A stretch of 60,169 bases of DNA, counting the filler, from Hausera hauseri (Eukaryota), in NCBI GenBank assembly GCA_046269625.1. It is 12 parts of 12 records of this genome, joined end to end, with 100 filler letters (N's around TTAATTAATTAA, not from the genome) between each part and the next. Parts side by side here need not be neighbours in the genome. Positions count along the whole stretch, not along the records: positions 55,862 to 60,169 come from JBJURY010644664.1; 11 more parts are not named here. One strand, given 5' to 3'. Below, one piece after another: positions 7,451 through 60,169 of this stretch. A program made the position numbers and the translations under genes. Every line of letters begins with the position of its first letter. Position 1 is the first letter of the stretch. The notes under the pieces are model-generated. The model was not told the origin of the DNA. It saw nothing but the letters and a program-made list of their open reading frames with translations, and did not search any database.

Positions 7451-7499
7451 CACCAACAAAATGCGGTTATGAATTTTATATTTTGTGACGTTATTATCT

Positions 7500-8425: not shown

Positions 8426-9602
8426 ATTTCACTAATTTTGTTCAAATTTTGGATTATGTGTAATGGGCACAGGACGTGCTGCCCCGAGATCTACTGAACG
8501 TTTTTAATATTTAAAACAGTTGACTTCCGAATACCAACAATCTGATCAATTTAATCATCGAAACCCAATCGTTGCCAATCTTGCAAATATTGCGTACGAT
8601 TGTCGTAATTATCGATATTTGGTTAGATTGAACGTCCTGGACGTATTTTTTTCATTGTTTAACGCAACAGGACAGTACCAAGTACATTAAATTGCGTTCC
8701 GTTATTGGTATATGCAACATATGTGCAAATCAACCATATCATTCGATAATTTGCAACAACGACAATTTATGGTCATTGCTGAATTGTTTATCGTCACCAA
8801 ACATTGACATTGTCATCATAGCAATCATCGCCTTCATTTATTTATGCGAAACCGACATCAGCCGAAGTTCAGTCCTTTTGCCGACCGTCGTCAAGACCTG
8901 TCGGAATTTGCCGCAGTCAACGAATCCACGATTGCTGAACATTGCCACCATATTTCTCTATCATTGTGCTACACCAAACTGCCGTGTGATTTTCTCGAAT
9001 GACGTTCCGATACAATTTCTGGTTGTTGCCGAATCACCTGCGCATTTGCCACTGTAAACCGGTCGTCCGTGTTTTACCTGGTTTCATCACGATTTTCTTG
9101 TTATCTGATGGCAGTTCAGCGACAATTTTCCGTCCGGAATGTCTCTAGCCGACATGTGTTAGTGTGGATTACGTCCGTCACTCACTGCAAAAAATGTCCC
9201 CAGCTGTCGTTGTCAATGGGGAATTGTTTGTCAATCCTAAAAATCCACCATCACAATCTGTCGAGAATATAATGTTAAACAGCGCACTCAGTGCCGCGTT
9301 ACCGTTATCCCAGCAAATCGATATTTATTGGAAACTCGCCAAATATCTGACTTACATTTCTCGTAGTGCTGACTGCCTACTGTGACAGTCTCATGACCCC
9401 AGTACAATCGATCCATGGTTGTTGCTAATTGCCAGTGCCTGTACGTTGTCTACTAGTCCATCAGCGAATGCCTTCAATCAGGTCATTGAAATACCATTTG
9501 ATTTTCAAATGGTTCGTACTCGAAATCGACCACTTGTAGTCGGCAAATTGAGCCCATCACATGCCATACTATTTGCTACAATGAGTTCAATTGTTGAATT
9601 AT

Positions 9603-10492
9603 CTCCACTGGTGTATTGTTCATAATGGTGGTCTTCTAATTCTCACTGCTTATTTGTTGATTAGAGTCCGTGCATGGAGTAAATGCCCTATACAAATATT
9701 TGTCGTTTCCAGTGAAACTAATCACACTATCAATTTAAGAAAAGAATTTAAACAATTCATTTATGATTTTCGAATTGCTGCCGACGTAGAAATTGTCGAA
9801 TTGGATCAAGCTGACATTTCAGCTTATGTTTTCCAACGAACAATGGACATGGATATGCGAAAAAACTCATGGAAAACATGAATTTCGATTCAACACTATA
9901 AGTTCAATCAATTCGTGACAAACATCATACAAAAGGAGATGAGTTGAACTTTGTTGCTGATGCAAAAGCAAAATTGATGTCTGTTCCTAGTATCAGTATT
10001 GATATTGAAGATTACGACGCAAAGAGCAACATTAAATCGAAAGAAGATGACAACAAAGTGCATACCAATCCAGTCGAAAATACTCAATCAGATGGAATGA
10101 AAACATCGACTACAGAACAGATACTTATTTTCACAACTGATGCTACTCCACAGCAAAATCAGCCATCAGTAATCTTTGCAAATCCAGTAAAACCACACTA
10201 GAATGAAACATCAGAACGAAATAATGAATTTACATTTTCTCCCACGGCACTAAAGGGAATGAAACCTCCATGAACCAACAGACGAATGCACAATGCCGTA
10301 AAATTAAACGAAATGATCCGCGGTAAATCTCAAAATGCTTGTTTGGTTCTCGTCAATCTTTTCAGTCCATCAAAGGACAAAACGAGTGATTACAATTACA
10401 TGGAATACGTCGAAACGCTTACCGAAGGACTCTAACGAGTTTTGTTAGTCTGAAGAACTGGCAAAGAAGTCATTACAGCATTTACCGAATAA
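9603..10492 (+). pseudogene. Intronless K-Cl cotransporter (SLC12A4-7/KCC-type) C-terminal domain fragment
   Basis: WCIVHNGGLLILTAYLL..AWSKCPIQIF...RIAADVEIVELDQADISAY; RMHNAVKLNEMIRGKSQNACLVLVNL...NYMEYVETLTEGL*RVLLV*RTGKEVIT. Contains a frameshift and stops, and no introns. Confidence 0.9.
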
Positions 10493-11122
10493 ATCCAATC
10501 ATTGGCANNNNNNNNNNNNNNNNNNNNNNNNNNNNNNNNNNNNNNNNNNNNTTAATTAATTAANNNNNNNNNNNNNNNNNNNNNNNNNNNNNNNNNNNNN
10601 NNNNNNNAGGAGGGGCAAATGAAAAAGCGTGATCCGCTGTACTGTACTGCATAATATCTGGACATTGTGTCTTCACATAGCTGTCGTTCATGTACCTTGT
10701 TGGTACAATAATTAAAGTTACAAATCTATATGGTGATATAATAGTATAACACAATTAAAATAATATACCATTTTGATACGTACAATAAAGTTTCAAGGTA
10801 CAAACTTCATCACTTTATTTATAGTAAATATCATTCAATCAAATTTCAGCCAATCAAAATGAAGTATAGCAATGATTAAACAATATACAGTCTAAATGTC
10901 AATAGTTAAGTACTTCATATGTATGAAAGACACTAGATAACTGTATAAAGTACAATTTTACTTAATGCGTGTGTGTGAGTGACACTAGATAAGTGTATAA
11001 TGTACAGTTTTACTTAATATGTGTGTGTGTACAATTAATATGTGTATGCGTTTTTTTAATGCGATTTTAGGAGTTTTCGCGCGGCGCTTTGCGCTGCGTT
11101 TCGAATAGGAGGGTGGTGATCC

Positions 11123-14100
11123 ACTTGTTAGGTGATGCACTTATTAGGTGATGCACTTATTAGGTGATGCGCTTATTAGGTGAAGCACTTATTACGTGAC
11201 GCACTTATTAGGTGACGCACTTATTAGGTGATGAGATTATTAGGTGATGCACTTATTAGGTGATGAGCTCACTAGGTGATGAGCTTATTAGGTGATGCAC
11301 TTATTAGGTGATGCACTTATTATGTGATGAGCTTATTAGGTGATGCACTTATTAGGTGATGCACCTATTATTTGATGCGCTTATTAGGTGATGCACTTAT
11401 TAGGTGATGAGCTTATTAGGTGATGTACTTGTTAGGTGATGCACCTATTAGGTGATGCACTTATTAGGTGATGAGCTTATTAGTTGATGCACTTATTAGG
11501 TGATGCACCTATTAGGTGATGCGCTTATTAGGTGATGCACTTATTAGGTGATGAGCTTATTAGGTGATGCACTTATTAGATGATAAGTTCATTGGGTGAT
11601 ACACTTATTAGGTGATGCACTTATTAGTTGATGCACTTATTAGGTGATGAGCTTATTAGGCGATGCACTTATTTGGTGATGAGCTTATTAGGCGATGCAC
11701 TTATTAGGTGATGCACTTATTAGGTGATGCAATTATTAGGTGACGAGCTTATTAGGTGATGAGCTTATTACTTGATGTACTTATTAGGTGATGAGATTAT
11801 TAGGTGATGCACTTATTAAACGATGCGCTTATTAGGTGATGCACTTATTAGGTGATTCACTTATTAGGTGACGAGCTTATTAGGTGATGAGCTTATTACT
11901 TGATGTACGTATTAGGTGATGAGATTATTAGGTGATGCACTTATTAGGTGATTCACTTATTAGGTGATTCACTTATTAGGTGATGCACTTATTAGGTGAT
12001 GAGCTTATTAGGTGATGCACTTATTAGGTGATGAGCTTATTAGGTGATGCACTTGTTAGGTGATGCACCTATTAGGTGATGCACTTATTAGGTGATGCAC
12101 TTATTAGTTGATGCACTTATTAGGTGATGAGCTTATTAGGTGATGCACTTGTTAGATGATGCACATATTAGGTGATGCACTCATTAGGTGACGAGCTTAT
12201 TAGGTGATGCACTTATTAGGCGATGCACTTATTAGGTGATGCACTTATTATGTGATGAACTTATTAGGTGATGCGCTTATTAGGTGATGCACTTCTTAGG
12301 TGATGCAATTATTAGGCGATGAGCTTATTAGGTGATGCACTTGTTAGGTGACGCACATATTAGGTGACGCACTTATTAGGTGATGAGCTTATTAGGTGAT
12401 GCACTTATTATGTGATGCACTTATTATGTGATGCACTTATTATATTATGCACTTATTAGGTAATGTACTTATTATGTGATGCACTTATTAAGTGATGAGT
12501 TTATTAGATGATGCACTTATTAGGCGATGCACTTATCGGGTGATGCACCTATTATGTGATGCACTTGTTAGGTGATGCACATATTATGTGATGCACTTAT
12601 TAGCTGATGAGTTTATTATGTGATGCACTTATTATGTGATGCACTTATCAGGTGATGCACTTATTAGGCGATGAGCCCATTGAGTGATGCACTTATTATG
12701 TGATGAGCTTATTAGGTGATGCACTTGTTTGGTGATGCACCTATTAGGTGATGCACTTATTAGGTGATGCGCTTCTTAGTTGTTGCACTTATTATGTGAT
12801 GTACTTATTAGGTGATAAACTTATTAGGTGATGAGCTTATTAGGTGATGCGCTTATTAGGTGATGCACTTATTTGGTGATGCACCTATTAGGTGATGCAC
12901 TTATTAGGTGATGAGCTTATTATGTGATGCACTTGTTAGGTGATGCATCAATTAGGTGATGCACTTATTAGGTTATGAGCTTATTAGCTGACGCACTTAT
13001 TAGGTGATGCACTTATTACGTGATGCACTTATTAGGTGATGAGGTTATTAGGTGATGCGTTTATTAGGTGATGCACTTATTACGTGATGCACTTATTAGG
13101 TGATGCTCTTATTAGGTGATGGGCTTATTAGTTGATGCTCTTATTAGGTGATGCGCTTATTAAATGACGCGCTTATTAGGTGATCCGCTTATAAATTGAT
13201 GCGCTTATTAGGTGATGCGCTAATTAGTTTATACGCTTAATAGTCGATTCACTTAGTAGATGATGCACTTTTTAAATGATGAACTTATTCGGTGATGCCC
13301 TTCTTAGGTGGTGCGCATATTAGGTGATGTCCATGTTTCTCGATGCACTTATTAGTTGATGCGCTTATTAGGTGATGCACTTATTATGTGAGGCACTTAT
13401 GAGGTGATGCGCTTAATAGGTGGTGCGCTTATTATCTGATGCCCTCGTTTGTCGAAACATTTATTCGGTGATGCGCTTATTATGTGATGCGATTGTTAGG
13501 TGGCGCGCTTATTAAATGATGCTCTTGTTTGGCGATGCACTAATTAGCTGATGCGCTTATTTCGCGATGTACGCACTACGTGATGCACTTATTAGGAGAT
13601 ACACTTATTAGGTGATGCACTTATTCTTTGATGCACTTATAGGTGATGCCCTTATTAGGTGATGCGCTGATTAGTTGATACGCTTATTAAGTGATGCACT
13701 TTTTAGGTGATACGCTTAATAGGCGATGCACTTATTATTTGATGCACTTCTTAGGTGATGCTCTTATTATGGGATGCGCTTATTAGGTGATGCACATATT
13801 AGTTGATACACATATTAGATGATGCGCTTATTAGGCGACGCACTTATTAGGCGATGTACTTATTAGGAGTTGCGATTATTATGTGATGTACTTATTAGCT
13901 GATGCGCTTATTAGATGACGCACTTATTAGGAGATGCGCTTATTTAGTGATGCACTCATTAGGTGATGCACTTATCAGGTGATGCACTTATTATATGGTA
14001 CACTTATTAGGTGAATCGCCTATTAGGTGATACGCTTATTAGCTGATGTGCATCTTAGGTGAAGCACTTACTAGGTGAGGCGCTTATTAGGTGATGCGCT

Positions 14101-14827
14101 TATTAGGTGATGCGCTTATTAGGTGATGCGCTTATTAGGTGATGCGCTTTTTGGATGATGCGCTTATTGGATGATGCACTTATTATTTGATGCACTTATT
14201 TGGTGATGCAATTATTAGGTGATGCACTTGTTTGTCGATGCACTTCTTAGGTGAAACGCCTATAAGCTGGTGCGCTTATTAGGTGATACCCTTGTTTGAC
14301 GATGTCCTTAATAGTTGATACGCTTATTAGGTGACGCACGTATTAGGTGATGCACTTATTAGGTGATACGCTTCTTAGGTGATGCACTTATTAGGTGATG
14401 CGCTTATTAGTTGATGTACGTATGTGGTACACTTATTAGGTGATGCACTTATTAATTCATGTTCTTATTAATTGATGAGCTTATGAGGTGATGCGCTAAT
14501 TTGATGATGCACTTATTAAATGATGCTCTTCTTAGGTTATGCGCTTATTAGGTATTTCTTTTATTAGGTGATGCGATTAATAGGCGATGCACTTATTAGC
14601 TGGTGCGCTTATTAGGTGATGAACTTATTAGGTGATGCACTTATTAGGTGATGCGCTTTTTAGATGATGCACTTCGTAGTTGATGCGCTTATTAGGTGAT
14701 GCCCTTGTTTCTCGAAGCACTTATTAGGTGATGCTCTAATTAAGCGATGCCCTTGTTTGTCGAATCACTTATTAGATGGTGCGCTTCTGAGTTAATGCAC
14801 TTCTTAGGTGATGCACTTCTTTGGTGG
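11123..14827 (+). repeat. 16-bp tandem satellite, consensus TTATTAGGTGATGCAC (~230 units, runs into the contig end)
   Basis: Directly visible 16-nt periodicity, with variants ...GATGAGC and ...GATGCGC. Confidence 0.98.
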
Positions 14828-17800
14828 NNNNNNNNNNNNNNNNNNNNNNNNNNNNNNNNNNNNNNNNNNNNTTAATTAATTAANNNNNNNNNNNNNNNNN
14901 NNNNNNNNNNNNNNNNNNNNNNNNNNNTAAAGAACCTTCAGTTAATAATGAATTTGGGGGGCACTGTTACCTGTCTAATGAAGAAACCTTATAACACTGC
15001 GCGCTTCAATTTTGTCCATCAGGCAGGTTATTGAAAACTACCAGTTTATAAAACAAAACAAGTTGACATAAGCAACTGTAATTTACAACATCCTGAGTAT
15101 ACGAGTAAATGATTATGCTGGTAAGTTTATAACTGAATAGAACAATTGCTTCATAGCGATAATTACGTGAGTACGCTAAGGATAGCTAATGCGGCGAAGG
15201 CAAAGACAGACGCGGAACGCAAAGAGGCAGAAAAAGCTAGCCCGCCAGATTTAGATGTCATGATGACAACTCAATTACTAAACGGTATATGGTCCAGAGA
15301 CTTGGTTAAGCAACTAATTTTAGCTGGACCAGACAATTTTGAGACTGCATTACAGTTATTTCAGAACTTAGAAATGGCACTAGATAGATGCGCTAGACAG
15401 GGTGATAGGTATGACCAAAATAATGATCGTGATAATCGGGATAGAAACCAAAACAATAGAAGATTTAACGATAATAATAAGAGTCGAGGCTATGAAAATA
15501 GAGTTCAAAATGCCGCTAATCGCAACACAAGATATGATAATGGGAACTTTAGTGATAATCAGAGCACATAATTCTTACAACAAAACAGGTTATATTTCGG
15601 ATAAGAACCAAAATAATGACCGAAGCAATAAGAACCGATATACAGATAATCGAAGTTTCGAAAATAGAAATAACGGAATCGATAAGCAAGCTCAACCAAC
15701 TCAAAACAAAATAACAGGCAGATCCAAATCACCATTGAATGAATACGGACGACAAAGGATCGGCCGAGACGGGAATCTGATTTGTTATTCATGCGGTAAG
15801 GAAGGACATATAGCTAGATCATGCCCTAATCCACGAAGCGTGTCATTTTCAGAGACCAGTAAAGCTAGCACAATAAAGGATAATTTGGAAGGAATCTATG
15901 GAAAACGAGGTGATATAAGCATGATTATCGAGATGCAGGACTTACGAAGATATATAAGAAATATGGGCGAATCTAATAATCCACAAGTAATCAAGGCCAG
16001 GAATGAATATGAAGAAAAGTTGCAGCTAATGGAAGTTTATCATGGGTTGAGAGAACCAAAAACGGAGTACAAAAATGCCAGGAAAATAAACCTAAATCAG
16101 GTAGTGGAAGAAGAAAAGCTGACTACGTCTCCAAGTGTAGACTTGGAAGCAGATACCGAGGTCGCGTCTCAAAATAAGGACAAAACAATAGACGAAGTTG
16201 AGAGCGAATTCATTGGTCCACTAATACGTAAGATAAATAAAAATAGGGGTAGAAACCCCTCACTTAGGAGAAGGTCGGGAATTCGTTTCCGATCCCCTAT
16301 TAAAAAGATTTAGAATAGAAGGAAGACTTCACCATCACCTTAAGAGATGAAACGGAGTTAAATACTCCTGTTATAAACCAAGGCGTTCCGGAAACAACAA
16401 ATATTTCGAATATCGATGAAATTAATGAAATATGTTCGTTACTTTCTAAGTTTGGAAAGATTAGAAAATTTTGGAAAAATGCAAACGAACTAACGGAATT
16501 AAGAGATGCACTGAATGATCCCGGAAGGCTACAAGAGAGACTGCAAAAGCTCCAGCAGATGAGCAAACAGTTGAATATCTCCGGAAAAGAGCAACAATTC
16601 ATAGAAAAGCTATATGAAAAGCTTAAACCCGGATTTCAGAAACAGGAAGAAAACACACCTCATGAACTCCACGAAACGTTGCAAGGCTTGATAGGAAGTT
16701 GGCAAAATAAATTAAAACTGTGGACAGGGAGCGAAACTGATTTTATGAAAATATGGTGGAATAGAAATGAGGCGTTTCCCGATCAGGTTAGTCAAGCGCA
16801 AAGACTATTAAATGCACTAAAAAGCAACCCAAAACTAAAACGCGTCAGGCGTAATTTAGAAGGACTGATATACAAGATCGAAGATGCGATAAATTCTTAT
16901 CTTCATAACAAGCCAGTATATGAACTGACTAATGTCGACCTGGAGATATTGGGCATAGGCCCAATCGATTTTCCCCCTTTAATAGCAATATTCAGCCTGA
17001 TAAAATATGGTCCTCGACGATACTCGGATTTGAAAATACGCATTGAAAGAGAAAACGAAATACGAACCAAAATCAACGACTTAAAAATTAGTGTAGTTCA
17101 CCCTGATAAAGCAGAAGCACACAGGAAAACACGTGCTTGTCTCCTCGAATTAGATGGGCATAAAGAAGAATTCAACTACATAAAGCATATCATAGCATTT
17201 GTACGAGCACCAGATCACAAACTAGAAGAAGCTGTTGGAACATTAAACGAAATAATCGACGCTAAACCTGAAATATCTAAAAAATAAGAAAGTGGATAGA
17301 CTGGTTATCTTCTTAAGTAGAGGTAATAAAGGAAAGATTAAGAGAATTTGCTATGATGGAACCTTTAATAAAACACCAATTGGAAGAAATGTTACTAGAT
17401 ATCGGTACGATGGAAGACGAAGCGAAATTGCGAATTAAATTCAAATCATTCCGAGAACTAGAATTTATGGGCAAGGGTCAAGATCAAATAACACTAACAG
17501 AAATATATAGTATGGTAAAAGAGAAGGAATTCTATAGAAAAAGAAACAAGCTAAATGATCTCCAGCGGAGACTAGCGAACATTCGTTGGGAAGGGATACA
17601 GAACCTAATGCAGAAACCATTGAAGGAAATCTCAGCACAAGAAATAGAAACATTAAAATTAATAAAAAAAAGAATCCAGCAGAATGGACACCAGGTTTCG
17701 ACCTATACTGCCACACCGAACTAACGGAAATTAAGAAGGATCCTCAGTTGACGTGCGATGAAGCCAAGTTTATAGGCAGGCTAATGGACGCAATATATCC

Positions 17801-18564
17801 AGATGCCAAAGTAATAAACCAAACGCACAAATTAATCCTACTATTAACAGAAATGGCAGAAATTGACGAGGTAGTAGCCGAACGGCTAATAAATCGAATA
17901 CGCCTTTCAAAAGAAATCCGGTTAAGCTCCTAGAAAAGACAGTGCGAGCTAAACGAATTATTGAGAGAAACAGAAGTTTATAAGAACAAGTACTTCGTCA
18001 CGGAATCTGAAATTAATGACAAAATAGAATTTACGCAAAGATGGCAGAGACAGAATCGCGGAAATAACTATCTATCAAGAGAAAGCCTTAATACAACCAG
18101 AAGAAATGTGCCGACTAATAAAAATGATACAACAAGCCTGCGGAAACGGGGATGGACTTAGGATATCCATAATGAAAACATTGCAACCACGGATAAGAGA
18201 ACTACGCGAAAGAGTCCAGGTTGGCCACGCGGCATTAGAGAACTACGGGTTACCGGACGCGGATAATGATGCCGAGTGGGATGAATACCTCCAAGGTTTA
18301 AACCAGCAAAGTCAAAGAACTCCAATGCAAATTTTTGAGTCACCTATTGGCACCCAGAAGACAAACTTCGACGTGCAAATGCTACTTGATCCCACGCTAA
18401 CTGAAAAGGAACTGAGCAGTGCATTGAAAATAAACATAAGCGAAGGTAGGTTAAGTAAATTGATTCCAACCTTAAGCAAACAATCCAGTGAAAACACCGC
18501 ATACAGCGCTGTACTCAAGCTCCTAATAAGAGAATACTCCAAACTGTTGAAAAATAAACCAGAA

Positions 18565-18795
18565 GTGGAAATTAGAGTGAAAGTATGACACGAATGGATG
18601 GACGACGAAGAAATTGAGTGCACTACCTATACCACCGTCGGGGATATAAAACAGCGGATAATGGATAAGGATGGTAGGAAAGGAGTTAATTATCGACCCT
18701 ATTTCAGGAGCAGGATATTAGACGAGCTAAAATCCTTGACAGACGTAAAGTTTATACCCCTCGAAGAAAATCAAATAATAGCAATAATCGTCAGC
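18565..18795 (+). CDS. Ubiquitin-like domain within the retroelement polyprotein
   Basis: VEIRVKV*...EIECTTYTTVGDIKQRIMDKDGRKGVNYRPYFRSRILDELKSLTDVKF matches the beta-grasp pattern (TV.D.K..I...G....RL.F.G+.L+D..SL.D); one internal stop. Confidence 0.6.
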
Positions 18796-19489
18796 GAGCA
18801 AACCAAAGATGAGGCCATGAGAAAGGCACATACAGAGCACTGCGTTGGAAGAATCATGGGGATTCAGGATGCTGCACTGTATTTCGAATACTTACAGACT
18901 GATGATGACAAACCGCAGTACGATAGGAACTTAGTCCCTCTAAGTAAAACCTTACCGCCGATGAAAGCGAAACGACCGGTCGAGAGACCAAGAAAAATAA
19001 AAGAAATTGACTATAATGCAGATCTAATTAGAGAATTGAGACAACTATTGGTACCAACCCCAAGCTCAAATAACGAAGAACTAATTGAGCAAATTAAAGA
19101 CCTAATTAGGATAGTCAATTATACCGGACTCCAAGGCGACATATTATCCGAGAAGGAAAGACTAATATATAATATAGGCCGGACAATGAAGACCTCACGA
19201 TTTAAATTATCTAAAAGCACCCTCCCTGACAAAACAGTAATTTATAGAATTATGATAGACAATACGATGGAAGAATTAAGGAAAGTCTTGATATATTTAG
19301 AAGTAAGAACTAACCCACTTCAAGAAAACGAATTCGACAAAACAATTGGGTTAGCTAAAAAAGCTGCAAGAAGGGAATCTAAAGAAATAAAATGGACTAA
19401 ATTATTCAAAAAAGAAGAAAATACAAAACGGGCTAATACGTTAGAGGACATGATACGAAATATCTCCCCGAACAATGGAAACGAACCCA

Positions 19490-19786
19490 ATTGGTTAATC
19501 AACTTGTTGACGATAATGATGCTAGTAAAGCAGATAGGATTAGTCACTATATACAAATGCGACAAATTTAAGGTGGGTCAGAAATATTCCTTGATGGACT
19601 TAGAAACATGCGAAGATGCGAGGCCTCATAAGCTCGAGACAGCAGAAAAAAATACATACTATATCAAGAGCGTGTATTAATCTCAATGGATGCAACGGAA
19701 TGCATGGTACGGAGATCCCGCAGCATATTTCATTGTGGTAATATACACGGTCATTCTTCAATAATCAAACCAACCACACCACTAAT
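19490..19786 (+). pseudogene. Envelope glycoprotein N-terminus (herpes gB/chuvirus-like class III fusogen type)
   Basis: Hydrophobic signal WLINLLTIMMLV followed by IYKC, SLMDLETC and (after a frameshift) YQERVLISMDATECMVRRSRSIFHCG; homologous to 57860-58330. Confidence 0.6.
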
Positions 19787-26130: not shown

Positions 26131-26666
26131 AAGATTTCGTCCATTGAACAATCCATCCAAAACAAACCTGTTCGGATCACTTCGAATTCAGAAAGAATAT
26201 TCAGCAGGAATTCCGGTGAAACTAAATAATGCCTTATGCAAACCCCGATGGTTCTTATACTGTAATTGTTCTAATCAAGTGGTATAAATATCGGCCAAAT
26301 CTTTCGTCTCTCAAACCATTGGACAAAATGAATTTGGAGTAAATGGAAGCGATTTACGTTACGGCATTTACCGTTTAAGAAAAGTGGAATTTATAGGTTG
26401 GATGACATCCTTAAAGAACTCTACACAGCACCATGGTTGGTTTTATTTACTTGTTTCAGCACAAGAAATTGTTGATTAGTTCATGTACCACAGATGTATT
26501 CAATTTCTGCTGCGAAACTCTGTTCCTAACTTAACTACATTTAATGATTTTGGATATTGCCGTGTTTCTGCCTTTAATTAAAATTTGTTAACATAGAATA
26601 CATTTTATAATTGATGATTGATAATTGATTACAATAACGTTTGAATAAATTTTTACATTACGACTT

Positions 26667-29600
26667 TTGATTTTGGGATTTTCTCAGATTATCGTTGATA
26701 TTCGCTTTGGAATTTATTTATCAACATTAAAACTGGTGTCAGAAGTATTTTTCATTGTGTGGTGCTTTTCGGCAGTTTACTTAATCTTATTCTTTGTTTC
26801 ACTGGTTTTGGGATATCATTCAGAAAAAAAGTTGAAGATGTTTATCATATTTTTGATTGTTTGCAGCGATATATTTGTGTTCAGTCATCCTATAGTATCA
26901 GTCATCATTCTACTCCATCCATCGTTGTTTTACAATTGCACATTGACGACAAAGATTTTACACAATGTTGGATTATATAATTACTTTTCCATGAAGTACT
27001 ACCATATTATTCGTCTCATATTGCCGGATGTCTACGTATTTTTGGTATCCATTTTTGTGCTCATTTTTCTACACAGCTCGTCTACGGAGATGGACAGTTT
27101 CGAGAATATGCGCAACAAAATTCTGGATTCTTGGCTTTATCAAAGAATAAAAATCATTTTTACTCAACTTCTAATATTATTCGTCAGTATATTATCTCCT
27201 TCATTTACGAATTTCACCTATTTCTTCATGTTCATTCTCGTCGATACAATGTGGGCCGGCGGATTGCGAATTACATCACGATGTCTTTTGTCTATACGAA
27301 CATTCATCATGACCTATTTGGCGATCAATATTAGTTTAATTTATGCTGTACAGTTTGAATATTTTCGAGAATGGTTTCCAGACAATAAATTACATTCAAG
27401 ACTACTCGGGATTTATCATTTCGTCGAATTCCCATGTAGAATTAAGAATGAATTTAATGTTTTACGTCAAAGGATTTACGATTTCCTTGTTCCGCCGATT
27501 TTGGTTATATTGTACTACATTCATTCATTCGATAGTGGTGTATATTTTGATACGAAAACATTGGAGAACCTTGCCATAATGCCACAGTTTTTGAAACGCA
27601 GAGGAGCCCACAGTTATATCAATTCCAGCAACGAAACAAAATCAGAAATCATTAATGTTAGTCGTCCATTTACGTGGAGCATAATAAATTCAGTTATCAG
27701 AAACAGCTATATATTATCATTTATCGCCATGATGGTATGGAGTGTTGCATATACATCGTGGTTAACGTTCTTGTTTATTTTCACCGCATGTATTCTATGG
27801 TTAATGCCAGACGCAAGAAAGGCTTGTTTAATGTGCAGTCCCGCCATAGTAGCATATGGGATTGCAATGAACTTGGCATTTTATCTTTCAAACATAAACA
27901 TACGTGACTTAATCAATTTAATTTTGTCCCGTTTTTCATATTTGCAATTGACAACCTTTCAGTCGGATATTCCATTTGTGCCACTCTTGCTTTCGTTTGT
28001 ATATTTGATAATATTCTGGATGACTCTAAAAATTCTAGACAAAGAAAGAGAACGGAAGTTAGAAGCTATGGTACCCGGAGCTCCACAGTTTGAAGATAAC
28101 AAACTGTACAAATTATATGTGGTATTCATACGCTACGTTTGTACCAAATATTGGCTGGTTGTGTGCTGTATAAGCTTACTGATGGAATCATTACAGAAAA
28201 CAACGAACGCTATATTTATCATCTATTTCATACTCATTACATACTTTTTATATTTCTTTATGTTACAATATAATGTGTGGAGAAAGCAACTCTACGCATT
28301 CCTATGGGTTGTCGTGGGTTATTCACTCATAACCGTATTCGCAATATATACATTCCACTTCAAAATCTTCCGAGATTTATGGATTAAACTGGAATATATA
28401 TCTGGAATTAAACTTAGTGACATTGGCTTGAATTCGTATCCTCCTCACGATTTATTCGAAGCTCTAATGACTCCCGTTTCGCTTCTTGTTATTACTATAA
28501 TACAAGTGCGTTATTTTCATCAAGTCTTTATGAAAATAATTTCATTTGATACCAGAGACGGAGGAAAACGAGAATCACCATACAGACTTAAAATAACAGC
28601 ATCAACACTTTCAGCGTATGATCAAAACTTTGTTGTTTCAACATTTCATATATTGTTGGCCCGTATGCAAAGATCGAAAGGTCCTCAAGAATGGAACTAC
28701 TTTGTATCAGACGTGAACGCAGCATTCGTTATAATAGCAAGTAAAATATCAGTTTACATCAGGATTTTGGGTGATAAATTTTGGATATTTCTTGAAATCC
28801 ACATAACAAAATTCGTTATTTTTTTAATATCCTACGTAATAACAAATGATGTCAATGATTATCATTTTGACTATGCTCTTTTGGTTGCTTTACTCTTTCC
28901 CATTACACGTTTACATAAGATATTCATTTTACTGTTGTATACGCTTTTGGTAGTACAAATGTTGTCGCGAATGATCTTTCAACTTACTTTTGTAAATGAT
29001 GAGCAGTGGATTGTTGACTGCAACATTAAGAATATATTTTCTGTAAATCGCAGTACGAGAAATATGAATCTTGCAGTATATTTCGGATACACCAAATTCC
29101 ATAATTTCAGATCATCCAACTGGTTTATAACATTCAATATAATTCTATGTGCGTTTTGGTTTGTTTTACTGTACCATCAACACAGGAGAGAAACATGGCC
29201 AAGAGAAAAGAGCGTTTTGTTTCCTGAAGCCAGCTGCAAAAATGCCAACGATTCAGTGGTCAATATTTTAAAACTTACATTGAATTATATTTTTTACAAA
29301 ATAGGCTTGGAGTTATGCTTAATAATGACTGTTATTGATGCATATATACGACTCGATGCCATCTCCATGTTTTACCTAGTATTACTGTTACTATATCTTC
29401 CCTCATCTAGATTATTATGTTCACAACTTTGGCCAATATACTTAGTAATTGTCTGTTTGCTCATACCAATCCAGTATATGATTTGTGTTGGTTATTTTCC
29501 AGGATTTTGCAAAGACTATATGGTAATCACAAACCAGAACTTGGTCAAATGGCCTTTTCTTCCAAATTATGAAATTCCTCTAGAATCCAAAAAAATATTC

Positions 29601-29900
29601 GTCGATGTACTTCTCCTTGTCTTCATTTGTTGTCAGTACCACGTATTTCGTATTGAAAAACAATCATTGGACTACAAAGGTGGACGAAACATTCCAACCT
29701 TAGTCAACGATATGCCCGATATTGAAAAGAAGGATTTCACGGTTGCTGAAGTATCTGAGATATCAGACACCGTCCAGTGGGTGCCTGCAGAAGAGAAGTT
29801 TTTAAACACTTACAGCGAAGAATCAAAAGATGACTTGTCGGTATCAAAAGGTAATCATGATGATTTCTATCAATTTGATCTCAGTCCAATAAATTCTCTG
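26667..29900 (+). CDS. piezo: Intronless Piezo mechanosensitive channel N-terminal half (truncated, probable retrocopy; no pore domain)
   Basis: Multi-TM ORF with Piezo signatures NC...ILHNVGL..IIRLILPDV, SFIAMMVWSVAYTSWLTF, FWIFLEIHITK, FYKIGLELCL, LWPIY..QYMICVGYFPGFC, DVLLLVFICCQYHVFRIE. About 1,080 codons with no intron or stop. Confidence 0.9.
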
Positions 29901-29902
29901 GT

Positions 29903-29952
29903 TGGGGAACCGAGCGTGCCCGCCCCCGCTGCGCCGCGTCACTTATCCCTGT
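29903..29952 (-). mobile_element. Inverted short LTR head (copy H) with PPT-like AGGGATAAGTGA
   Basis: Reverse complement ACAGGGATAAGTGA-CGCGGCGCAGCGGGGGCGGGCACGCTCGGTTCCCC aligns with ACAGGGGGTGA-TGTGGTGCTGCGGTGCTGGACACAACTCGTCTTCCC at 45578-45624. Confidence 0.55.
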
Positions 29953-30157
29953 TAATTTTTTTTAATAACATGCACATCAGTACCTTTTATGCTCCACACA
30001 CGGGTACCTTGCATTGTCTCTACTCACATCTAGTCTCTCTCCTCCACTCGTCTGAATNNNNNNNNNNNNNNNNNNNNNNNNNNNNNNNNNNNNNNNNNNN
30101 NTTAATTAATTAANNNNNNNNNNNNNNNNNNNNNNNNNNNNNNNNNNNNNNNNNNNN

Positions 30158-34251: not shown

Positions 34252-37200
34252 TGTGCTGTTCGTCTGCTAAACAAGATATAGACCAAACGGTAACAAAGCG
34301 GGACAAAAATCGTTCCGGCCTAGCTGCGTCAAACGGTGAATCTATTGCCAGAAATTGAGGGCCATGTCCTAGACCGTGGCACTACATCTCCCTCCCGTGG
34401 AAAAAAAGGAACTGTAGAGTGAAAAAGAAGGAGGTGAAACGCTAAATTGTTTAGTGCCTATTGGGTTTGGTGTGTATGAGGGGTTCTGTTCCGTCTATTG
34501 ATTTTTGCTTGCTATAGGTGCTGAATGTCACTCTGCGTGTCCTATTTGGTTGGTTTGTGCTTGGTTGTTGAACGATGTTTTGTGGTGGACGTTTTGTAGG
34601 GTTTTCTGATTCACTGTGCTGTGTTGCTTGAGGTGAAGAGGTTGAAGATTGTAGAGGGAATAAATTGAACGAGAGACGCGAAGAAACTGAAGGTGGTGTG
34701 GATGAGGAAAAATGAGAGAAAGAGGCGTGAAGAGAAAACTAAGTAAGCGATGTAGATTCAGTAAGCGGTTTGCAAGTTGGGGGTGCTTTAGTGTGAGAGA
34801 AAAGTGGTTGCTGTAACGGAGCGAAATCATGGAGAAAGTTTGAGGAAGGAATGGAAGAAGTGAGAGTTGAGTTGGAGTTGGAGGTACAATCGGCATCCGG
34901 ATTGTCATCAACGAAAAAAGCGGGCTCAAGGTTTGAGATGAGGACATTGTAGGGTTTTTCTTGGAGTAGAATGGTAGCTGTATGAGATGAGAGGTGAAGT
35001 AGTTTGTATGGACCAACATACTGAGGTCGAAAACCCGAAGATGATTGATTCTTTAGCCATACAAATTTGGTTAAGTATAAATTCTTTGGTATGTACGATA
35101 TGTTATTGTTAAATAAGCAGCAGAATGAGTTTGAGTTGACCTCGACAAAGTGCGACTGTGCCGCGCGAATGCTTTCATCTGTCGGATTGTCAACAAGGTG
35201 GGAAAGTTCAAACAGGGCCCGTGTTGGAGTCCCAAAAAGTGCCTTGGCTAGAGCACAACCCGTGGTGGTAGAAGGAGTGTTGCGCCAACCGAGTAAAACG
35301 AATGGCTAGATGGACGTCCAATTGCGATGATTGTCTGCTAGGACTTTTAAAGAAATTTTCATAGTTCGATGGAATCTTTCAAGGAGTCCATTTGCTTGTT
35401 GGTGATACGGTGTTGTATGGAAATGTGATATTCTCAAGCGTTTAACAAGCGATTTAAAAAAATCTGACTCGAACTGCGGACCTTGGTCCGTTATGATGTG
35501 TCGTGGGGATCCGAAGCGATTGATCCAGATTTTGATGAAGGCGTCTGCTACTGAATCAGTGTTTGTTGAACGGAGAGGTACGGCTTCAAGCCAGCGAGAA
35601 GCACAATCCATCATAGTGAGAATATGTTGATACCCGTTGTCGGAAGGTAAAGGTACGACGAGATCAAGATGGATGGTATGAAAACGTGATGTACATGGGA
35701 AATGGTAAAGCGGCAATTTCAGATGTTTGTTGACTTTGTATTTTTGACAGGCGACGCATTCTTTAACCCAACCCTGTACATCTGTGAGCATTGATGGCCA
35801 AACTACATTACGTTGGAGCAAGCGAAAAGTGGCTTTCGAGCCTGAATGATAGAGTGAATGCGTGTGAAGAAAAGCTGGCTTTTGCAGAGAAGGAGCGAGA
35901 ATGATTTTTTTATTACCGGGGTTAGATGTGTCGTATGCGATTCCACCAATGATTTTGAAGGATTTGAAAGAGTTAAGAATATCTGCAGACGGTTGATTGA
36001 GCTTTAGAATTTCAGTAGAAAATATTGGCTCTACCGTAATTGAGCCGATCGACCGTGATAGGAAATCCGCAACCAAATTTTCCGTACCTGAAATATACTT
36101 TATGACAAAACTAAATGTGCATAGGTACTATATCTGTCGTTCCTGCTTCGGTGATGGTTGTTTTAGTGACATGATGTGTAGCAGAGGCTTGTGATCTGTT
36201 TGGATGATATATGGACGAGAGAGGAGGAGATGTTTGAAATGTTTTACTGCCGGAACTATGGATAGTAGCTCACGATTGAATGTAGAATATCCGCTTTCTG
36301 GTTGTGTAAGTTTTCGAGAGTAAAATTCCAAAGATTCATCGATGCCGTTGGAAATTTGGTGTAATATTGCACCAGTAGCTGTGGAAGAGGCATCGGTGGT
36401 AAGTCTTAGTTCCGCGTCGGGTTTTGGGTAGGCCAGTATTTCGGCGGTTTTTAGGCCTTTGCGTAAGTGATCGAATTTGGTGACTAAATCGGGAGTCTAT
36501 TGGATTAACTGTCTTTTCTTTCCAGATGAAAGGTGTGCGAAAGGTGCCGTAAGCTTAGAGCAATGTGGTATGTATTTATGGACAAAATGTAGTGTTCCAA
36601 GAAAACTTCTCATATCTTTAGTGGTCGTTGGTAGTGTAACGTTTTTTAATTGCTGTAGTCGATCAGGTTGTGGAGAATGGCCGTGAAGAGTGATAATGTG
36701 GCCTAAGAAATTGACGCGTTTCTGAAAGAAATTGCACTTAAAGAAATTAACATGTAAGTTTTTATGACGTAGTGTGTGATAAGTGATTTGGAGGTGTTTA
36801 TGGTGTTGTTTCACGGATTTGGAGGCAACTAATATGTCGTCGATGCAGAGATGAGAAAATCAAGGCCTGAGAGAACAGTGTCGATGTGGCGTTGGAAAGT
36901 TTGTGCTGCGTTACGTAAACCGAGTGGCATAAACATGTATTCGTAAAGTCCAAATAGAGTGATGACAGCAGTCTTTGGGATGTCATCGTGTGCAACGGGA
37001 ATTTGATGGTAGGCTTTGTGAAGATCTATTGTGGAATAGGTATTGGTGTTGTTAAGACTGTGTAGGATGTCTTTTATGAGCGGTAATGGGTAAGCATCCA
37101 TGATGGTTAGATTGTTCAGTAGACGGTAATCGCCACATGGTCGAAAGGTACCGTCCTTTTTGCCACTACATGTAATGGTGAAACCCATGGTGATTTGGGT

Positions 37201-38295
37201 CTCCGAATGATACCAGATTTTTCGAGTTCGTTAAACTCTAATTCTACGGCTTTTCGTCTACGAGACGACAATGGTCTCACCTTTTGTCTGATAGGTCTTT
37301 GATGTTGGGTAACGAAGTGGTGATAAGTTGTTGACAGGGGCTTGAAGCTAGAGTCTTTTTTGAGTATGCGAAAACAAGAAGAATTGATGTAGGATTTGAG
37401 ATTGGAATCTAGTGATAAAAATGATTGAGGCGTATTATCGGAGGAGGCGGTGACTGTGATTGACAAAGAGTGGACGACGTTGTCGCCGTCACCGTTCGGT
37501 TTAACTGAATGTTTCAAAATCAACTTCGGTGTTTCTGTGTAATTGATAAAATATATAAACTACTGGATGTATCGTTATCGACCAATAAGTAATTTGCCAA
37601 ATTCACGTGTGAGTTCGCAGACGTTTGGCCTGTTGCGTTATCTGTTGGACTGTTGCTAAAGTTTACGACGGAGTCTCTACGTAGTAAACGACCATGCTTG
37701 TAGTCAACTAGCAGGTCATGTGCGGCCAAAAAATCTTATCCGATTATTGGTGATTTAATGTTGGCCACGTGGAATTTCCAGAAAAACGTGCCTGGTAAGT
37801 TTAAGAATGTAATGACTAGTTCTGTGATGCCTGTAATTCGCAAAGGTTGACCGTTGGCGGTGAAAAGCGGAGGGGAAAAATTGTCGTTGATGTAGGGGGA
37901 AAAGACAAAGGTAGGAGTGCAAAGGCAGCTCCTGAGTCGATGAGGAAATGGATATGTAAAGCATTGTTAGGGAACGGTGTAGCTTTTAACACAAAAACTG
38001 CGAAGGCGGTGTTAAGACGGCCAGAAGATTGAGCAGTATTGCCAATGCCAGAATGTGCCGTAACATCTAGCGTACTTTTTAGTTTTTTGAAGATTGTGGA
38101 GGGAAAGAAGATCACTGGTAAGCAGAAGGAGGAGGAGAAGAAAATTAAGAAAAACTGGATTTGTTTTGGTAATGTTTGCACCTTGGAACGCACGATCTGG
38201 CTAGATAATGGAATTTTGTGTGATAGATACAGATATGGCTGTCCACCGCTAATCACTCGTCATAATATCTACAACCCAAAAGACATTTATATGCA
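34252..38295 (-). mobile_element. Near-complete Ty3/Gypsy element (gag end, PR, RT, RNase H, integrase, PPT, 3' LTR head copy E)
   Basis: Gag CIYHTKFHYLARSCVPRC; FLIDSGA; RPCGDYRLLN..DAYPLP; TDASS..RELLSI..TDHKPL; integrase HHCC plus D,D35E (IHLDLV..ITDQGPQFES..NGLLERFHRT); PPT GGAGGGAGA then TGTAGTGCC at 34386. Confidence 0.96.
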
Positions 38296-52109: not shown

Positions 52110-53300
52110 TGTGCCACTTGTCAGATCGTGTTTGAATTGCAGTAACTGACCCATAAAATTGAAATTCGGCGATATGATACTCCGCGCTTCACCCACTTAT
52201 GGGCATCGTTTAAATCGAGATTTTGACAATGGCACATAAGGTATGCGATGACTATTGTCGCTGATCTACCCACACCGGCTTGGCCCATTGGAACTTCGAG
52301 CATGCTCGATAAAATGAAATGTTTCGGGAAAATACTGAATGAGATCCTGAACGTTATTGTCTTGACAATCGATTCGTTTCGATTGAAATCAAATTTCGTC
52401 GAGAAATGATACGGTGAGAGTTAAATTTATTACGTAAGTGATTTTATTCCCAGTAAGAAATGTATTGTTCAACGTATCGAATTCGTTACCGATATAAGGA
52501 AAAGGTAATATCTGACTAGCTTTGAAATAATAGATGTCTGTCGTGTCTGCAATGGATTTAGGAATTTGCAAACACAATGCGTTTGTCGAACCGCTATCGC
52601 ATAGGTTTGGATAGGCCTTTTCGAAGTGTTTTATGCCGCCGGACAGATATAAACAATCGATGTCGTGGTTGAGCAAAAATTGAGTCAGCATTGTGATATG
52701 GTCATCTTCCTTAATTGGATAACCGAATTCCGTATAAATGATCACGTGTTCCGGTTTCGATAACTTCAGAGTTTCATTGATTATCTGAATGGCACGTCTG
52801 CTTTTGAGCTTTGACGAACAACTTGCCAGTTTTGCAGTCGTTATGTGAAATCGAAAAGAACTACAAGCGGACCTGAGATCGAAATTCGCCGTCGATAAAT
52901 TGGGAGTATTTAACATATCGTCTAATTCCAGCGAATTGACTTTGGACATTCGTTCATCGAGTTCAAAGTCGAAACTCGTAACGATTTTATGGTGCAACGT
53001 TGGACTGGTTTGTTCGGCGAAAAACGTTGGAAATCGATTGATGAAGAGCACCGGCTGAGAATTCATAATGAGACGTTGAGGAGTCATTGATGACTGAATC
53101 TGAACGGGGATCTGAACTGAGGATGGAGAAGAATTGGAGAATCCGTTGGTAACGACATTTGATGTTTCTTACTGTAAAACGTTTGAGCTGAGATTGATTG
53201 ACGGTAATGACGGAGATGGAGGAATGGGCAACTTTAAGTGGTTTGATTTGTACACGTTCCGTTAATCGGATGGAACGATAGCGTATTGAGACACATTTGA
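52110..53300 (-). pseudogene. Intronless MAP-kinase phosphatase (rhodanese + DUSP domain) pseudogene
   Basis: FDLRSACSSFRFHITTA...YLSGGIKHFEKAYPNLC (CH2/rhodanese); ASQILPFPYIGNE..KITYVINLT; QAGVGRSATIVIAYLM; ISPNFNFMGQL; the catalytic VHC is deleted. Confidence 0.9.
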
Positions 53301-55861: not shown

Positions 55862-58330
55862 AAAGCCTCCTATGAACAATGATAAAAAAATAAAAAACTA
55901 TCAGTCAAAGGAAAACTATCAAAAACCGTTTTATAAAAAGCAGAATCAAACGGAACAACAGCAGAAGAAGGTTAAATGGCAATAAGATCAACCTCAAAAG
56001 TCTGTTATGAGAAAACTAACGGTTAATCAGAATGGACAGCCATTATGCTTTGCATGCCAAAAATATGGGTATATGGCTTGCAGCTGCCCTAATCAAAGAC
56101 AGTAAAGTCAAAAAAAAAGAACGTTAATATAGTAGGTAATATATCTGACACGGATAATGAGCACGAAACTACAGATACAAGACCTGAAGAAACAATTGAG
56201 AAGTTACAACAGAAGATTAGATCCAAATTGAAAGAAAGTAAAACTAATACAATAGAAGATGAAGATACAATATCCGAATTAAAACAGCTGTACCTTAAAT
56301 TAAAGTAGCAACAAACTTGTGAGAGAAGACAGAAAATGAATGATGAAATTTTAGTTATTGCTCCTATCGGTAGACCCAAAAAGATTCCTGTATCAGAGTC
56401 GGATACTGAAAAGAAAAGGATTAAGAAGGACAAACCCTTGATACAATGTGAAAAACTGAGGACTATGTAATTTAACCTATTTTCTGGAAGTGAAAGTGAA
56501 AAGAGTGAGTCAAGTGAAGAAAGTAAACCCAAAGAGAAGATAAAAAGAATAAGGAAAAAGAAAATAAAGGAAAAATCCACAAGTTATGAGTCTTCACCTG
56601 TGGACTTAGATCAGGATGGCGTAGAAATAGTTCGGAAAATATCCAGTTATGCCAACCAAGAATTAATTGATGGTATTCGGTTTAGACAAGACCTGTCCAT
56701 GTTACTGTCGCCAACAATCAGTCATCAACAGTTTGCTAATTTATTGGACTTGTTGTTAATGTATGCCGCTGGCACAAGTCCATAACAAAATGTGCGATAT
56801 ATAATTTACCGGTATGCTGATAGTGAGAACGGTCGGAGAAAACACTGAAATAATGGTTACTCTCCAACAGTATAATCAGGACTTTCATGTTCTGAAGATA
56901 AAATCGTTGGATACAATAGCTATATTAAAGCATAAAATTAACGAAATAAACCAACCTCAAGGAGAATTAGAGCTACGCTTCTACGGACGAACGCTGATGG
57001 ATTATGAAACTTTATATGAAGTAGGCATCTGGGAAAACCGATACAATCCTGTGTGCATTACTTATAGACAGTCTGAACAAAAAATAATTGATGAAACTAT
57101 TACTGATGTTAGACGAAAAGAAACACAAGTTGAACATCAGAATCAGGAACAACCAGTAGAAGCTGGAATGAATATTCCCATATCAGAGCAAATACAAACA
57201 TATAAGAGAAACTGTGGTAGACCAAAAGGAACAACGAAACTATATCAGTTGAATAGCAGGAAAGCCAGAGATGACAAAATCGTTCAAAGATTATTGTCAA
57301 CAGAAGATGAATATGACGTAGTTAATGTATCACTGGCAACATTACTACAAACCTTGTTAGCAAGAATGCATAATGCATTCGTTGAGTTTAATACTAATCT
57401 GCAAATACCAGATTCACTAATGCAAGCTATAAGGAATGAGATCGCAAAGATTAGTAAACAATTTGCAGATATTCCTACGGATGAGAGGATAAATGAAATC
57501 CAGGAAAGAGTTATATTATCGAGAATGATGGAGACCGCCATATCCCGAAATAAAATTGTAAAGCAATATCCTATCTCTTATATAAAATAATAGCGATGAA
57601 TGGTATAAATCCGAATCAGGAAGAGGTATAGAGAAATATAGAAATTGCTGCCAGAGACTTAAAGGCCAATTTCGAAGGATGGGTAAAATGTAGAGCTTGA
57701 TGGATTACCAGTTTGGTTTATACAGCAATAAATGAACCGGCCCAACTACATAACAAGAACAGAATATCATCCACCTCAACAACCAAAGAGACAACAAAAT
57801 CTACAATCTGATTTCGATTTATCATTGTTAACTAAAGTTATACCCATAAGTCTTCTGTTTAGCCTGATGCTAAAAGCACTTTCAATCATTGCTTACGATT
57901 GTAGTCAAGCTAATGAAGGTCCAATATATTACATACTAGACTTAGAACAATGCCCATTTGCCAATTTGGCGTCACTAACTACAATATCGGAAAAGGAATA
58001 CCACGTTTATCAAGAGTCAAAATTTGTGAAATCTAAAGTGAAAGAATGTTTCGTTCGAAAAAATCATTTCCACTTTATTTACGGATATTGGTATCGAAAT
58101 GCAGCAATAGTTGAACCAACTACTCCGTTCGAACCAGTCCATATAAGTAAACGAATGCGTATAGAGGCCTTTGTAACAAAACAGATTAATATTGGGAATA
58201 TTCGGTTGAAGGCTCAAAAGGGAAAATCATTAATAAAAGAATTTTTGTAACTGGGACAATTCATAAAACAGGATAGCGTTTCAGCAAAGGTTTAACATTA
58301 AAATAATAAGAAATTCTCATGAACATGACC
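55862..58330 (+). mobile_element. Second gag(CCHC)-Ubl-AT-hook-env retroelement-like polyprotein (degraded)
   Basis: Knuckle CFACQKYGYMACSC at 56046-56087; Ubl LKIKSLDTIAILKHKI..ELELRFYGRTLMDYETLYEVGI; GRPK motifs; env LLFSLMLKALSIIAYDCS..ILDLEQCP..YQESK..KECFVRKNHFHFIYG. Confidence 0.75.
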
Positions 58331-58954
58331 ATAGACACAAGAGATTAAACGCACACTCATGCGCAGGCATGCAGATGACGTACTCCGTTCATGAAGTAGT
58401 CCCGATCAACATAGTTAGATGTTGATATACAAACACTAATGGTTTATAGTACACAAATGTCGCAAGTTACGAATACATTGGATAGCTTGGTACAGAAAGT
58501 TGCCATGATAATTGCGATAAATTTAAGTTAATCTTGGAGGTAATTAGGTAGAGCACAGACAGTTGTGAATATAGTTGTGCTTTAGTCGTGAATATAGATA
58601 CGGACATTTGTAAAGATAATTAGGTTTGAAGTATATCGTGAAGATTCCTGGTACAGAACAGGCTGTTGTACAGATGATTAAAGTTTGAAGCGCATTAATC
58701 CCAAAACATAACTGGATACAGCGCGTGCAGTTACAAATGTCTTGTCGTTTGAAGTGGGATCATCTTGTAGACAGATGCTTACAGAACATGAAATGTCTAG
58801 CGCTGAACTTGAACGTGCACGCAGCAAGTAACCGGTTGTTTCGGTTAACGAACAACTGAAAAAGTGGCGATGAAGATGTATGGTATGAATTAGCACATAT
58901 AAAATTACATATGAAGTAAACACATAAAATTAGTTGTTAAGTAAACACATATAC

Positions 58955-59216
58955 GCTCGTCTGCCGATCGTGTGGTTACGGGTTCAATACCAGCTGTGGG
59001 CATTGAATTTTTATTAAATCAAAACAGCTCCAGGGGCCCACCCAGCCTCAAAAATGGGTACCGGAGAAATTCTCTGGGAAAGTAAAGGCTGTCTGGCGTT
59101 ATGCTAACAACATAACCCAATTATGTGCCGATGTCTAGGAAAATATGTGGACACTAACTCCGCACATGCCTATGTGTCTTCTTAGGCGTGTACAATGGAC
59201 TTTACTTTACTAACTT
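58955..59216 (+). mobile_element. Nin-domain-like tRNA SINE
   Basis: GGTTCAATACC B-box, CCCACCCAGCCTC..AATGGGTACCGGAG..GTAAAGGC core, (ACTTT)n tail. Confidence 0.65.
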
Positions 59217-59724
59217 TATTGGGCCGAAGGGCAAAAGCCCACAGGCAGTTGAATCTGTAACATTAACAAAAAAACTGAACTGAAAGAGGGCTAAAGTGGC
59301 TTCATGAATCCCAGAATACATTTATCATGAATTCAGCCATCATGAGAATTTCTGTGCAGGGCTTCACTTGACTCATGATGGAGCATGTTGTACTGCAGTG
59401 TTACCATTGACGCCTGATAATGATTACGTAATATTTACGTTACTTTGTGCATGACAGGCATGGACAATTAACACACAGCTGAAAATAGATGCAGTCCAGA
59501 AATGGTTTTGCTAAAGCACAGACATTGTACCGGACTGCAAGGAAAATAAATGAAAATAAACTCATAGATATTTGAGAACATTTCAGACTTAGAAAAAACA
59601 CTTGAAAGTTATTAACAATATAATGAGAATACAAAGTATATAAAAAAATTATAACTTAAGTAAGTAGTAAGTAAGATTCATTTCATGCCTAAAGGCTGGT
59701 GCATTGGAAAACGTAGAGTTAATG

Positions 59725-59910
59725 TCTACATTTTCATTGTCACCAACACATGATTATGTTATCAGCATAACGCCAGGCCGCCTTTATTTTCCCAGAGAAT
59801 TTCTCCAGAACCTATTTTTGAAGCTGGGGGCCCCTGGAGCCATTTTGTCGAAAAAATCCAATGCCCACGGCTGAGACTGAATCCACAAGCTCACTAACCT
59901 CCCCCTGCTG
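59725..59910 (-). mobile_element. Inverted second copy of the same SINE
   Basis: Reverse complement matches 58980-59130 (GTGGGCATTG..GCTCCAGGGGCCC..GGAGAAATTCTCTGGGAAA..CTGGCGTTATGCT). Confidence 0.7.
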
Positions 59911-60169
59911 GTCCCTATTATAACTTAAATGCTAAGTGAAATACAAATGCATACAGATTTGCAAAAACTAGCTTAGATAGTTGCTGATACATAGACATTT
60001 AGCAATAACATATATACTAAATGAAATATTGACTAATGCATAGTGAATTACCAATCAGTGAGATGAATGAACAAACTTATATTCAGTTTGAACGCAGTTG
60101 ATTAAAATAAGGCACTCAACATACTTTGTTTGTCCTATAGCCTCATTACATCTGATGTAAGGAATACAG

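Follow-up and report, generated by a model that had tools for sequence, protein, structure and literature searches.

A decayed, probably Burro-like Ty3/gypsy copy with env next to gag in Hausera hauseri

Organisation of the two copies

The window, i.e. the whole stretch of 60,169 nucleotides of H. hauseri DNA that was analysed, consists of 12 short contigs and the N-linkers between them, and two of these contigs carry the copies described here, c12 (55862-60169) and c4 (14928-19786). All motif positions were reread in six frames, and both copies had the order knuckle, helical domain, ubiquitin-like domain (Ubl) and env, which bears out the common arrangement seen in an earlier note on this DNA. 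The motifs quoted in that note were all found in their places. The two AT-hooks that it listed, IGRPKK (56366) and CGRPKG (57213), both lie in c12, and a GRP motif is absent from all forward frames of c4. The features of the two copies are listed below, P0002 being the longer relative described in the next section.

55863-56126 (+): gag downstream of the capsid domain (3' part), the contig starting mid-gag; stops at 55983 and 56103
~56031-56087 (+): degenerate zinc knuckle, inside the 3' part of gag
56111-56623 (+): charged linker, short helical hairpin and first GRP (AT-hook-like) motif (56366-56383); stops at 56306 and 56468
56624-56821 (+): conserved four-helix domain directly before the Ubl; stop at 56783; HMM of the relatives, iE 2.1e-13
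56847-57068 (+): internal ubiquitin-like (beta-grasp) domain, without a C-terminal di-glycine at its end
57213-57230 (+): second GRP (AT-hook-like) motif, read from the sequence, in the linker between the Ubl and the Bcl-2-like domain
57333-57718 (+): Bcl-2-like helical domain with BH1- and BH2-like segments; frame change near 57561, stops at 57629 and 57698
57813-57887 (+): hydrophobic segment, predicted internal env signal sequence (hydropathy; helix 786-801 of the P0002 model)
57888-58330 (+): N-terminal ~140 codons of env, a gB-type/Monjiviricetes-like fusion glycoprotein; frame change near 58215, stop at 58274
58331-58885 (no strand): low-copy flank past the break; depth 0-7
14928-19786 (+): c4, second divergent family member; capsid remnant at ~15240-15400, intact knuckle at 15768-15827
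18340-18558 (+): helical domain of c4
18559-18795 (+): Ubl of c4
19474-19784 (+): start of env of c4, cut by the contig end

Copy c12 was collinear with residues 191-937 of P0002 at 61-70% identity. Its gag part was 62% identical to residues 190-282 of another relative, P0003, from the second base of the contig and 70% to P0002 191-223, and Pfam gave no match for the knuckle. The charged linker was 64% identical to P0002 219-452, where the P0002 model has low pLDDT except for helices 246-301. The Ubl matched Pfam ubiquitin just under the cut-off (E 3e-5), and env matched PF24664 (E 0.009) and was 71% identical to P0002 771-921, the similarity fading at ~58275-58330, where the copy ends. GRP[RK] motifs were present in 5/16 relatives checked.

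With 8 in-frame stops (55983, 56103, 56306, 56468, 56783, 57629, 57698 and 58274) and five frame changes (near 56115, 56822, 57561, 57755 and 58215), c12 is incapable of making the polyprotein. The frame containing the Ubl (56805-57587) is open over 261 codons, as might be seen in a host gene domesticated from such an element; however, these stops and frame changes, which split the Bcl-2-like domain, and the location of the sequence in a high-depth repeat family make domestication extremely improbable.

At the protein level c12 and c4 were similar (tblastx, E ~1e-11), and blastn gave no match between them. Pairwise scores judged against 2000 shuffles were significant for the knuckle (z 13.0, 0/2000), the helical motif (z 4.9, 4/2000) and the two env pieces (z 11.1 and 16.1, 0/2000 each), and not for the Ubl (z 0.9, 354/2000) or the Bcl-2 region (z -0.7 and -0.3). 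An HMM of the helical domain plus Ubl, built solely from seven outside relatives, matched c4 with iE 1.8e-7 and c12 in two frames, and this match and the env scores extend the significant likeness beyond the knuckle. The Ubl ORF of c4 had no Pfam match, and a Bcl-2-like domain was undetectable in c4 by the relatives' HMM, by shuffle scores and by further profile comparison; a match of profile A3 to c4 (probability 99.7) was discarded because A3 contains a c4 row and the match was therefore circular.

As the note had stated, the gag-to-Ubl spacer is ~2 kb shorter in c12, the distance from knuckle to Ubl being ~0.8 kb in c12 versus ~2.8 kb in c4. Knuckle-to-helical distances in seven relatives were 104-275 aa, which makes c12 typical and c4 the long form. 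The additional ~2.5 kb of coding sequence in c4 (15830-18310, +), between knuckle and helical domain, belongs to the repeat family of c4 and had no credible match in Pfam, PDB or the relatives. A designer-PPR match to this region was rejected, no stretch of it passing.

Depth was calculated as the sum over run X1 contigs at 80% likeness; these sums do not count copies, and X1 is possibly the source sample. In c12 it was 2,946-34,312 over 55862-58309 and 0-7 over 58310-58885, falling from 11,200 to 6.4 at 58310, and the flank at 58288-58680 was spanned by one identical contig. The repeat ends at this step, about 140 codons inside env, a protein of about 600 residues in the relatives. Neither an env nor a pol remnant was found in 58251-60169 by tblastn with nine env/pol proteins (best E 0.49), and Rfam gave two matches in 58200-60169, both sub-threshold. 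The depth of c4 was 440-25,290, with 30/30 bins covered, the extra 2 kb included, and thousands of related run X1 contigs cover both c12 and c4. No LTR-like direct repeat was found, none of c12, c4 and the contig L001 (see below) spanning both element ends. Because c12 and c4 both stop inside env, the absence of pol from them is uninformative. Separately, positions 58970-59894 hold two inverted arms (75 nt at 88% and 43 nt at 77%) of a SINE- or MITE-like repeat with very high depth, up to 594,902 summed in run X1.

Relatives and the position of pol

Using the Ubl ORF, a single longer protein was obtained among 1687 candidates. This protein, P0002 (1130 aa), aligns with 97% of the Ubl ORF at 75% identity and comprises capsid, knuckle, Ubl and a PF24664 env (E 6.3e-19) in one ORF that ends inside env. 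Its capsid-to-env part is 810 aa long and has no pol domain from knuckle to env, and no element boundary separates Ubl from env, both being in the same ORF. No loci for P0002 were found in viral_contigs or metagenome_contigs, and a near-length protein search with it returned only itself.

When P0002 was compared by phmmer with 1.84 billion representatives, 1381 matches were obtained (E up to 0.001), and 24 relatives picked among the 150 of them listed, long ones favoured, were scanned with Pfam. PF24664 was present in 18/24. Downstream of env, 12 of these 18 had a protease and/or RT, with RT reached in five (P0007, P0011, P0018, P0023 and P0038), and none had a pol domain upstream of env; the other six stop in or just after env and are hence silent on pol. 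An env-alignment scan confirmed two loci among 517 pattern matches. The natural contig L001 encodes a single ORF of at least 3426 aa with the order Ubl-Bcl-2-like-env-PR-RT-RH-IN (Ubl to residue 94, Bcl-2-like 325-417, env 470-1109, then PR, RT at 2155, RH and IN at 2691), contains merely the last residues of the helical domain and gave no match to dUTPase. In P0011, helical domain plus Ubl, env and full pol form one ORF, and the pol order PR-RT-RH-IN is present in L001, P0007, P0011, P0018 and P0023; c12 ends upstream of the pol position. The locus L002 encodes P0017 (gag, helical domain, Ubl, GRP motif and Bcl-2-like domain), with env in the same frame after a TGA. The full order was thus pieced together from overlapping natural proteins (P0002, P0017/L002, P0006, P0011 and L001), no single record spanning every domain.

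Regarding its class, the capsid profile was nearest to dArc1 (E 1.8e-9), and a Metaviridae-type capsid with a CCHC nucleocapsid was found, as in Ty3/gypsy elements. The gB/Monjiviricetes-type env lies straight after the gag region and before pol, as in errantiviruses. Taken together, c12 is very probably a decayed Ty3/gypsy copy that belongs with the Burro-like GAG-ENV-POL elements and breaks off within env, and its pol is likely to have lain downstream of env. The enzymes are probably missing from c12 because the copy breaks off inside env and in relatives pol comes after env. Judging from the sequences of the relatives, this lineage would not be expected to carry pol between gag and env.

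The conclusion of the earlier note that the two copies represent a real family and not a one-off deletion is supported, because the gag-Ubl-env junction is an intact ORF in P0002 and thousands of related contigs occur in run X1. Its implication that this family lacks pol found no support, since pol follows env in L001 and in 12/18 env-bearing relatives. Pol could nevertheless have been truly lost, from its place after env, in a non-autonomous gag-Ubl-Bcl-2-env subfamily mobilised in trans by a full-length relative. For neither the c12/P0002 nor the c4 subfamily was any pol seen; P0002 stops in env and P0013 just after it, and none of 4948 candidates was a longer relative of c4, which is weak evidence. 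In the env tree of 26 rows, c12 and P0002 were joined in 100/100, and with 3/23 branches resolved the tree singled out no nearest pol-bearing relative beyond this pair. However, c12 and c4 end inside env, the same ORF runs on into protease or RT in those 12 relatives and L001 has the order Ubl-Bcl-2-env-pol, so that we regard such a loss as unlikely.

Since env matches PF24664, a Monjiviricetes fusion family, and the contig is short and repeat-rich, the arrangement might also have arisen from an endogenous viral element, with a chuvirus-like glycoprotein fragment beside an unrelated gag-Ubl repeat, or from an assembly chimera. Against this, the junction is an uninterrupted ORF in P0002 and L001, depth is continuous over it and c4, a divergent copy, shows this order again. 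Both origins can practically be set aside in favour of a broken-off GAG-ENV-POL copy.

Several other observations were made on the relatives. The lone in-frame TGA of L002 (3058-3060), which separates the Bcl-2-like domain from the env signal segment and has otherwise open flanks, could be a mutation or a read-through site. P0011 (HBK71150.1), a gag-Ubl-env-pol polyprotein, is filed as a hypothetical protein of a Flavobacteriaceae MAG and is likely to be animal DNA in a bacterial bin. P0028 combines a PF24664 env start with mitochondrial ribosomal protein L47 (Pfam E 1e-28) in one predicted protein, through either a gene-model fusion or an insertion. At least two aspartyl-protease copies per polyprotein follow env in L001 (2-10282), P0006 and P0007, and in L001 a separate ORF after pol (10617-12107, +) encodes a domain that Pfam assigns to the RNase T/DEDDh exonucleases (E 1.4e-5). 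Additional pairs of hydrophobic segments occur within or after pol in L001 and P0007, and by eye they flank what look like fibronectin-III-like motifs. Within the window, on contigs other than c12 and c4, there are two decayed ordinary Ty3/gypsy pol regions (4693-10507 and 34252-38295, -), which shared 65% identity over 1.4 kb and were 29-43% identical to the RT-IN part of L001.

Accessory domains and a possible topology of the polyprotein

The architecture listed in the earlier note overlooked a Bcl-2-like domain between Ubl and env. An HMM of this domain from the relatives matched both c12 frames (iE 1.6e-20 and 3e-9), and the family profile matched Bcl-xL over BH1 to BH2 (E 1.7e-5). Pfam Bcl-2 was matched in 7/7 rows, all below the cut-off (best 2.1e-5), and the canonical BH1 NWGR motif was not kept in the seven aligned rows. 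The region is modelled as helical in P0002 (pLDDT 63-81), so that profile likeness and model together point to the BH1/BH2 helical core of the Bcl-2 family. The relatives' HMM did not find the domain in P0006 and P0011. All nine rows with a Bcl-2-like domain also have a hydrophobic segment just before env, 26-58 residues past the BH2-like GW motif; the distance in P0002 was counted from a GW eight residues early, which leaves this range unaffected.

The four-helix domain preceding the Ubl is modelled with four helices in P0002 (381-456, pLDDT 78-92). Two overlapping profiles matched the LEDGF IBD chain 2mtn weakly (E 0.09 and 0.021); a focused four-helix profile did not recover 2mtn at E up to 10, its best PDB match having E 0.43, and Pfam gave no support for a TFIIS-N/IBD identity. 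The ESM Atlas returned no usable match for P0002 380-760, and for P0017 555-712 all scores were under 0.9, Ubl clusters being among the matches.

Assembled from the overlapping records, the polyprotein of intact relatives starts with capsid and knuckle, continues with the four-helix domain, the Ubl, the Bcl-2-like domain, the hydrophobic segment and the gB-type env, and closes with protease(s), RT, RNase H and integrase. From this domain order, the N-terminal gag-helical-Ubl-Bcl-2 part would remain cytosolic; translocation of env into the ER, its ectodomain in the lumen, would start at the hydrophobic segment, and the transmembrane helix of env would bring the chain back to the cytosolic side, where pol would follow. 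Signal peptidase and the protease of the element may then cut the chain up. After the cut, by analogy with cellular Bcl-2, the hydrophobic segment could be kept as a tail anchor of the gag-Ubl-Bcl-2 part or of unprocessed Gag, which would keep Gag at the Env-bearing membrane, and the anchored Bcl-2-like domain could damp host cell death or signalling. One may speculate, at rather long odds, that a conserved cassette for host manipulation is present in compact Burro-like elements and was the ancestral core of the giant Burro elements. In it, a TFIIS-N/LEDGF-IBD-like four-helix module and the AT-hook-like motifs would act as an element-encoded chromatin or integrase tether, and the Bcl-2-like domain, with the env signal segment as its tail anchor, would act as a viral Bcl-2 encoded by a retroelement.

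Comparison with known elements and other features of the window

This architecture is not new, having already been published for Burro/GYPSM1, giant planarian Ty3/gypsy LTR retrotransposons (Jurka 2007; Grohme et al. 2018; both as summarised in PMC6431247). According to that summary, their polyprotein consists of retrotrans_gag with CCHC knuckle(s), Ubi2/SUMO-like and BCL2-like domains, env, PR, dUTPase, RT, RH and IN; env is related to the mononegavirus fusion glycoprotein and lies in frame between gag and pol, and decayed fragments with stops and frameshifts are described. The relatives of c12 have the same domain order in one polyprotein, and in c12 itself the Ubl, the BCL2-like domain and then env follow one another as they do in the gag ORF of Burro/GYPSM1. 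In contrast, the distance from knuckle to Ubl is ~265 aa in c12 and P0002 while Burro ORF1 has 4,873-5,140 aa, and one knuckle is present in the family of c12 where 2-3 are given for Burro (PMC6431247). The giant internal region of Burro, up to 25 kb, with its BIR, MATH/TRAF, ankyrin and RING cargo, has no counterpart in c12 or P0002, Pfam having detected none of these four domains in P0002 at E up to 1; dUTPase, as noted, was not matched in L001. Thus c12 is Burro-like and would work as Burro does, yet its differences in size and cargo keep it from being classed as Burro proper.

The helical domain before the Ubl is unmentioned in the Burro section of PMC6431247, and among the literature examined the Ubl/Bcl-2/env order is described there alone; the primary Burro papers may annotate the domain or compact forms. 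For Burro1, a protective role of the BIR region in stem cells is reported second-hand (PMC13465017), and what is available of PMC8532177 adds solely expression data.

Errantiviruses of the GAG-ENV-POL type with an HSV/gB-type env have been described in Platyhelminthes, Nematoda and Bryozoa (Chary and Hayashi, eLife 2026, PMC13524379). They resemble the relatives of c12 in the gB-type env and its position before pol, and they span ~12-18 kb including the authors' flanks. Compared by eye and unaligned, the P0002 env shares YQES..K.KEC, ELREY/F and C.TGES with Smed_errantivirus 1-6, and TNYKGIFLS is identical in Smed_6 (PMC13524379). Because the word "ubiquitin" is absent from the main text and supplements of that paper, an accessory Ubl is not annotated in it.

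The env of c12 is in the same Pfam family, PF24664, as the glycoprotein of Anakin elements. These BEL/Pao elements with a chuvirus glycoprotein are said to have been described by Dezordi et al. in 2020. Unlike them, the relatives of c12 are Ty3/gypsy-like, with the dArc1-like capsid mentioned above and Integrase_H2C2/rve after RT-RH. Furthermore, BEL/Pao gag has three knuckles, whereas the family of c12 has a single CX2CX4HX4C knuckle.

These results mostly correct how such loci are read: elements of this lineage normally have env adjoining gag, and therefore pol is not missing there. They also place the Ubl-Bcl-2-env cassette of the giant planarian Burro in compact, highly divergent relatives, where it is accompanied by a conserved four-helix domain that is unannotated in the portions of the literature examined. 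With the small Bcl-2-like domain, present where a BIR was not found, one can simply test whether control of apoptosis arose twice in the lineage.

Elsewhere in the window, an uninterrupted frame of more than 1,100 codons (26649-30057, +) matches Piezo TM1-24 (Pfam E 3.9e-91), and this intron-free stretch suggests an intron-poor gene or a retrocopy. By eye, the 158-codon ORF at 1575-2051 (-) resembles a fragment of a Polinton/Maverick-type packaging ATPase, and the 259-codon ORF at 52389-53168 (-) resembles a MAP kinase phosphatase, with rhodanese and the start of the phosphatase. Finally, positions 11115-14827 are occupied by a short-period tandem array of ~3.7 kb with ~79% identity between offsets.
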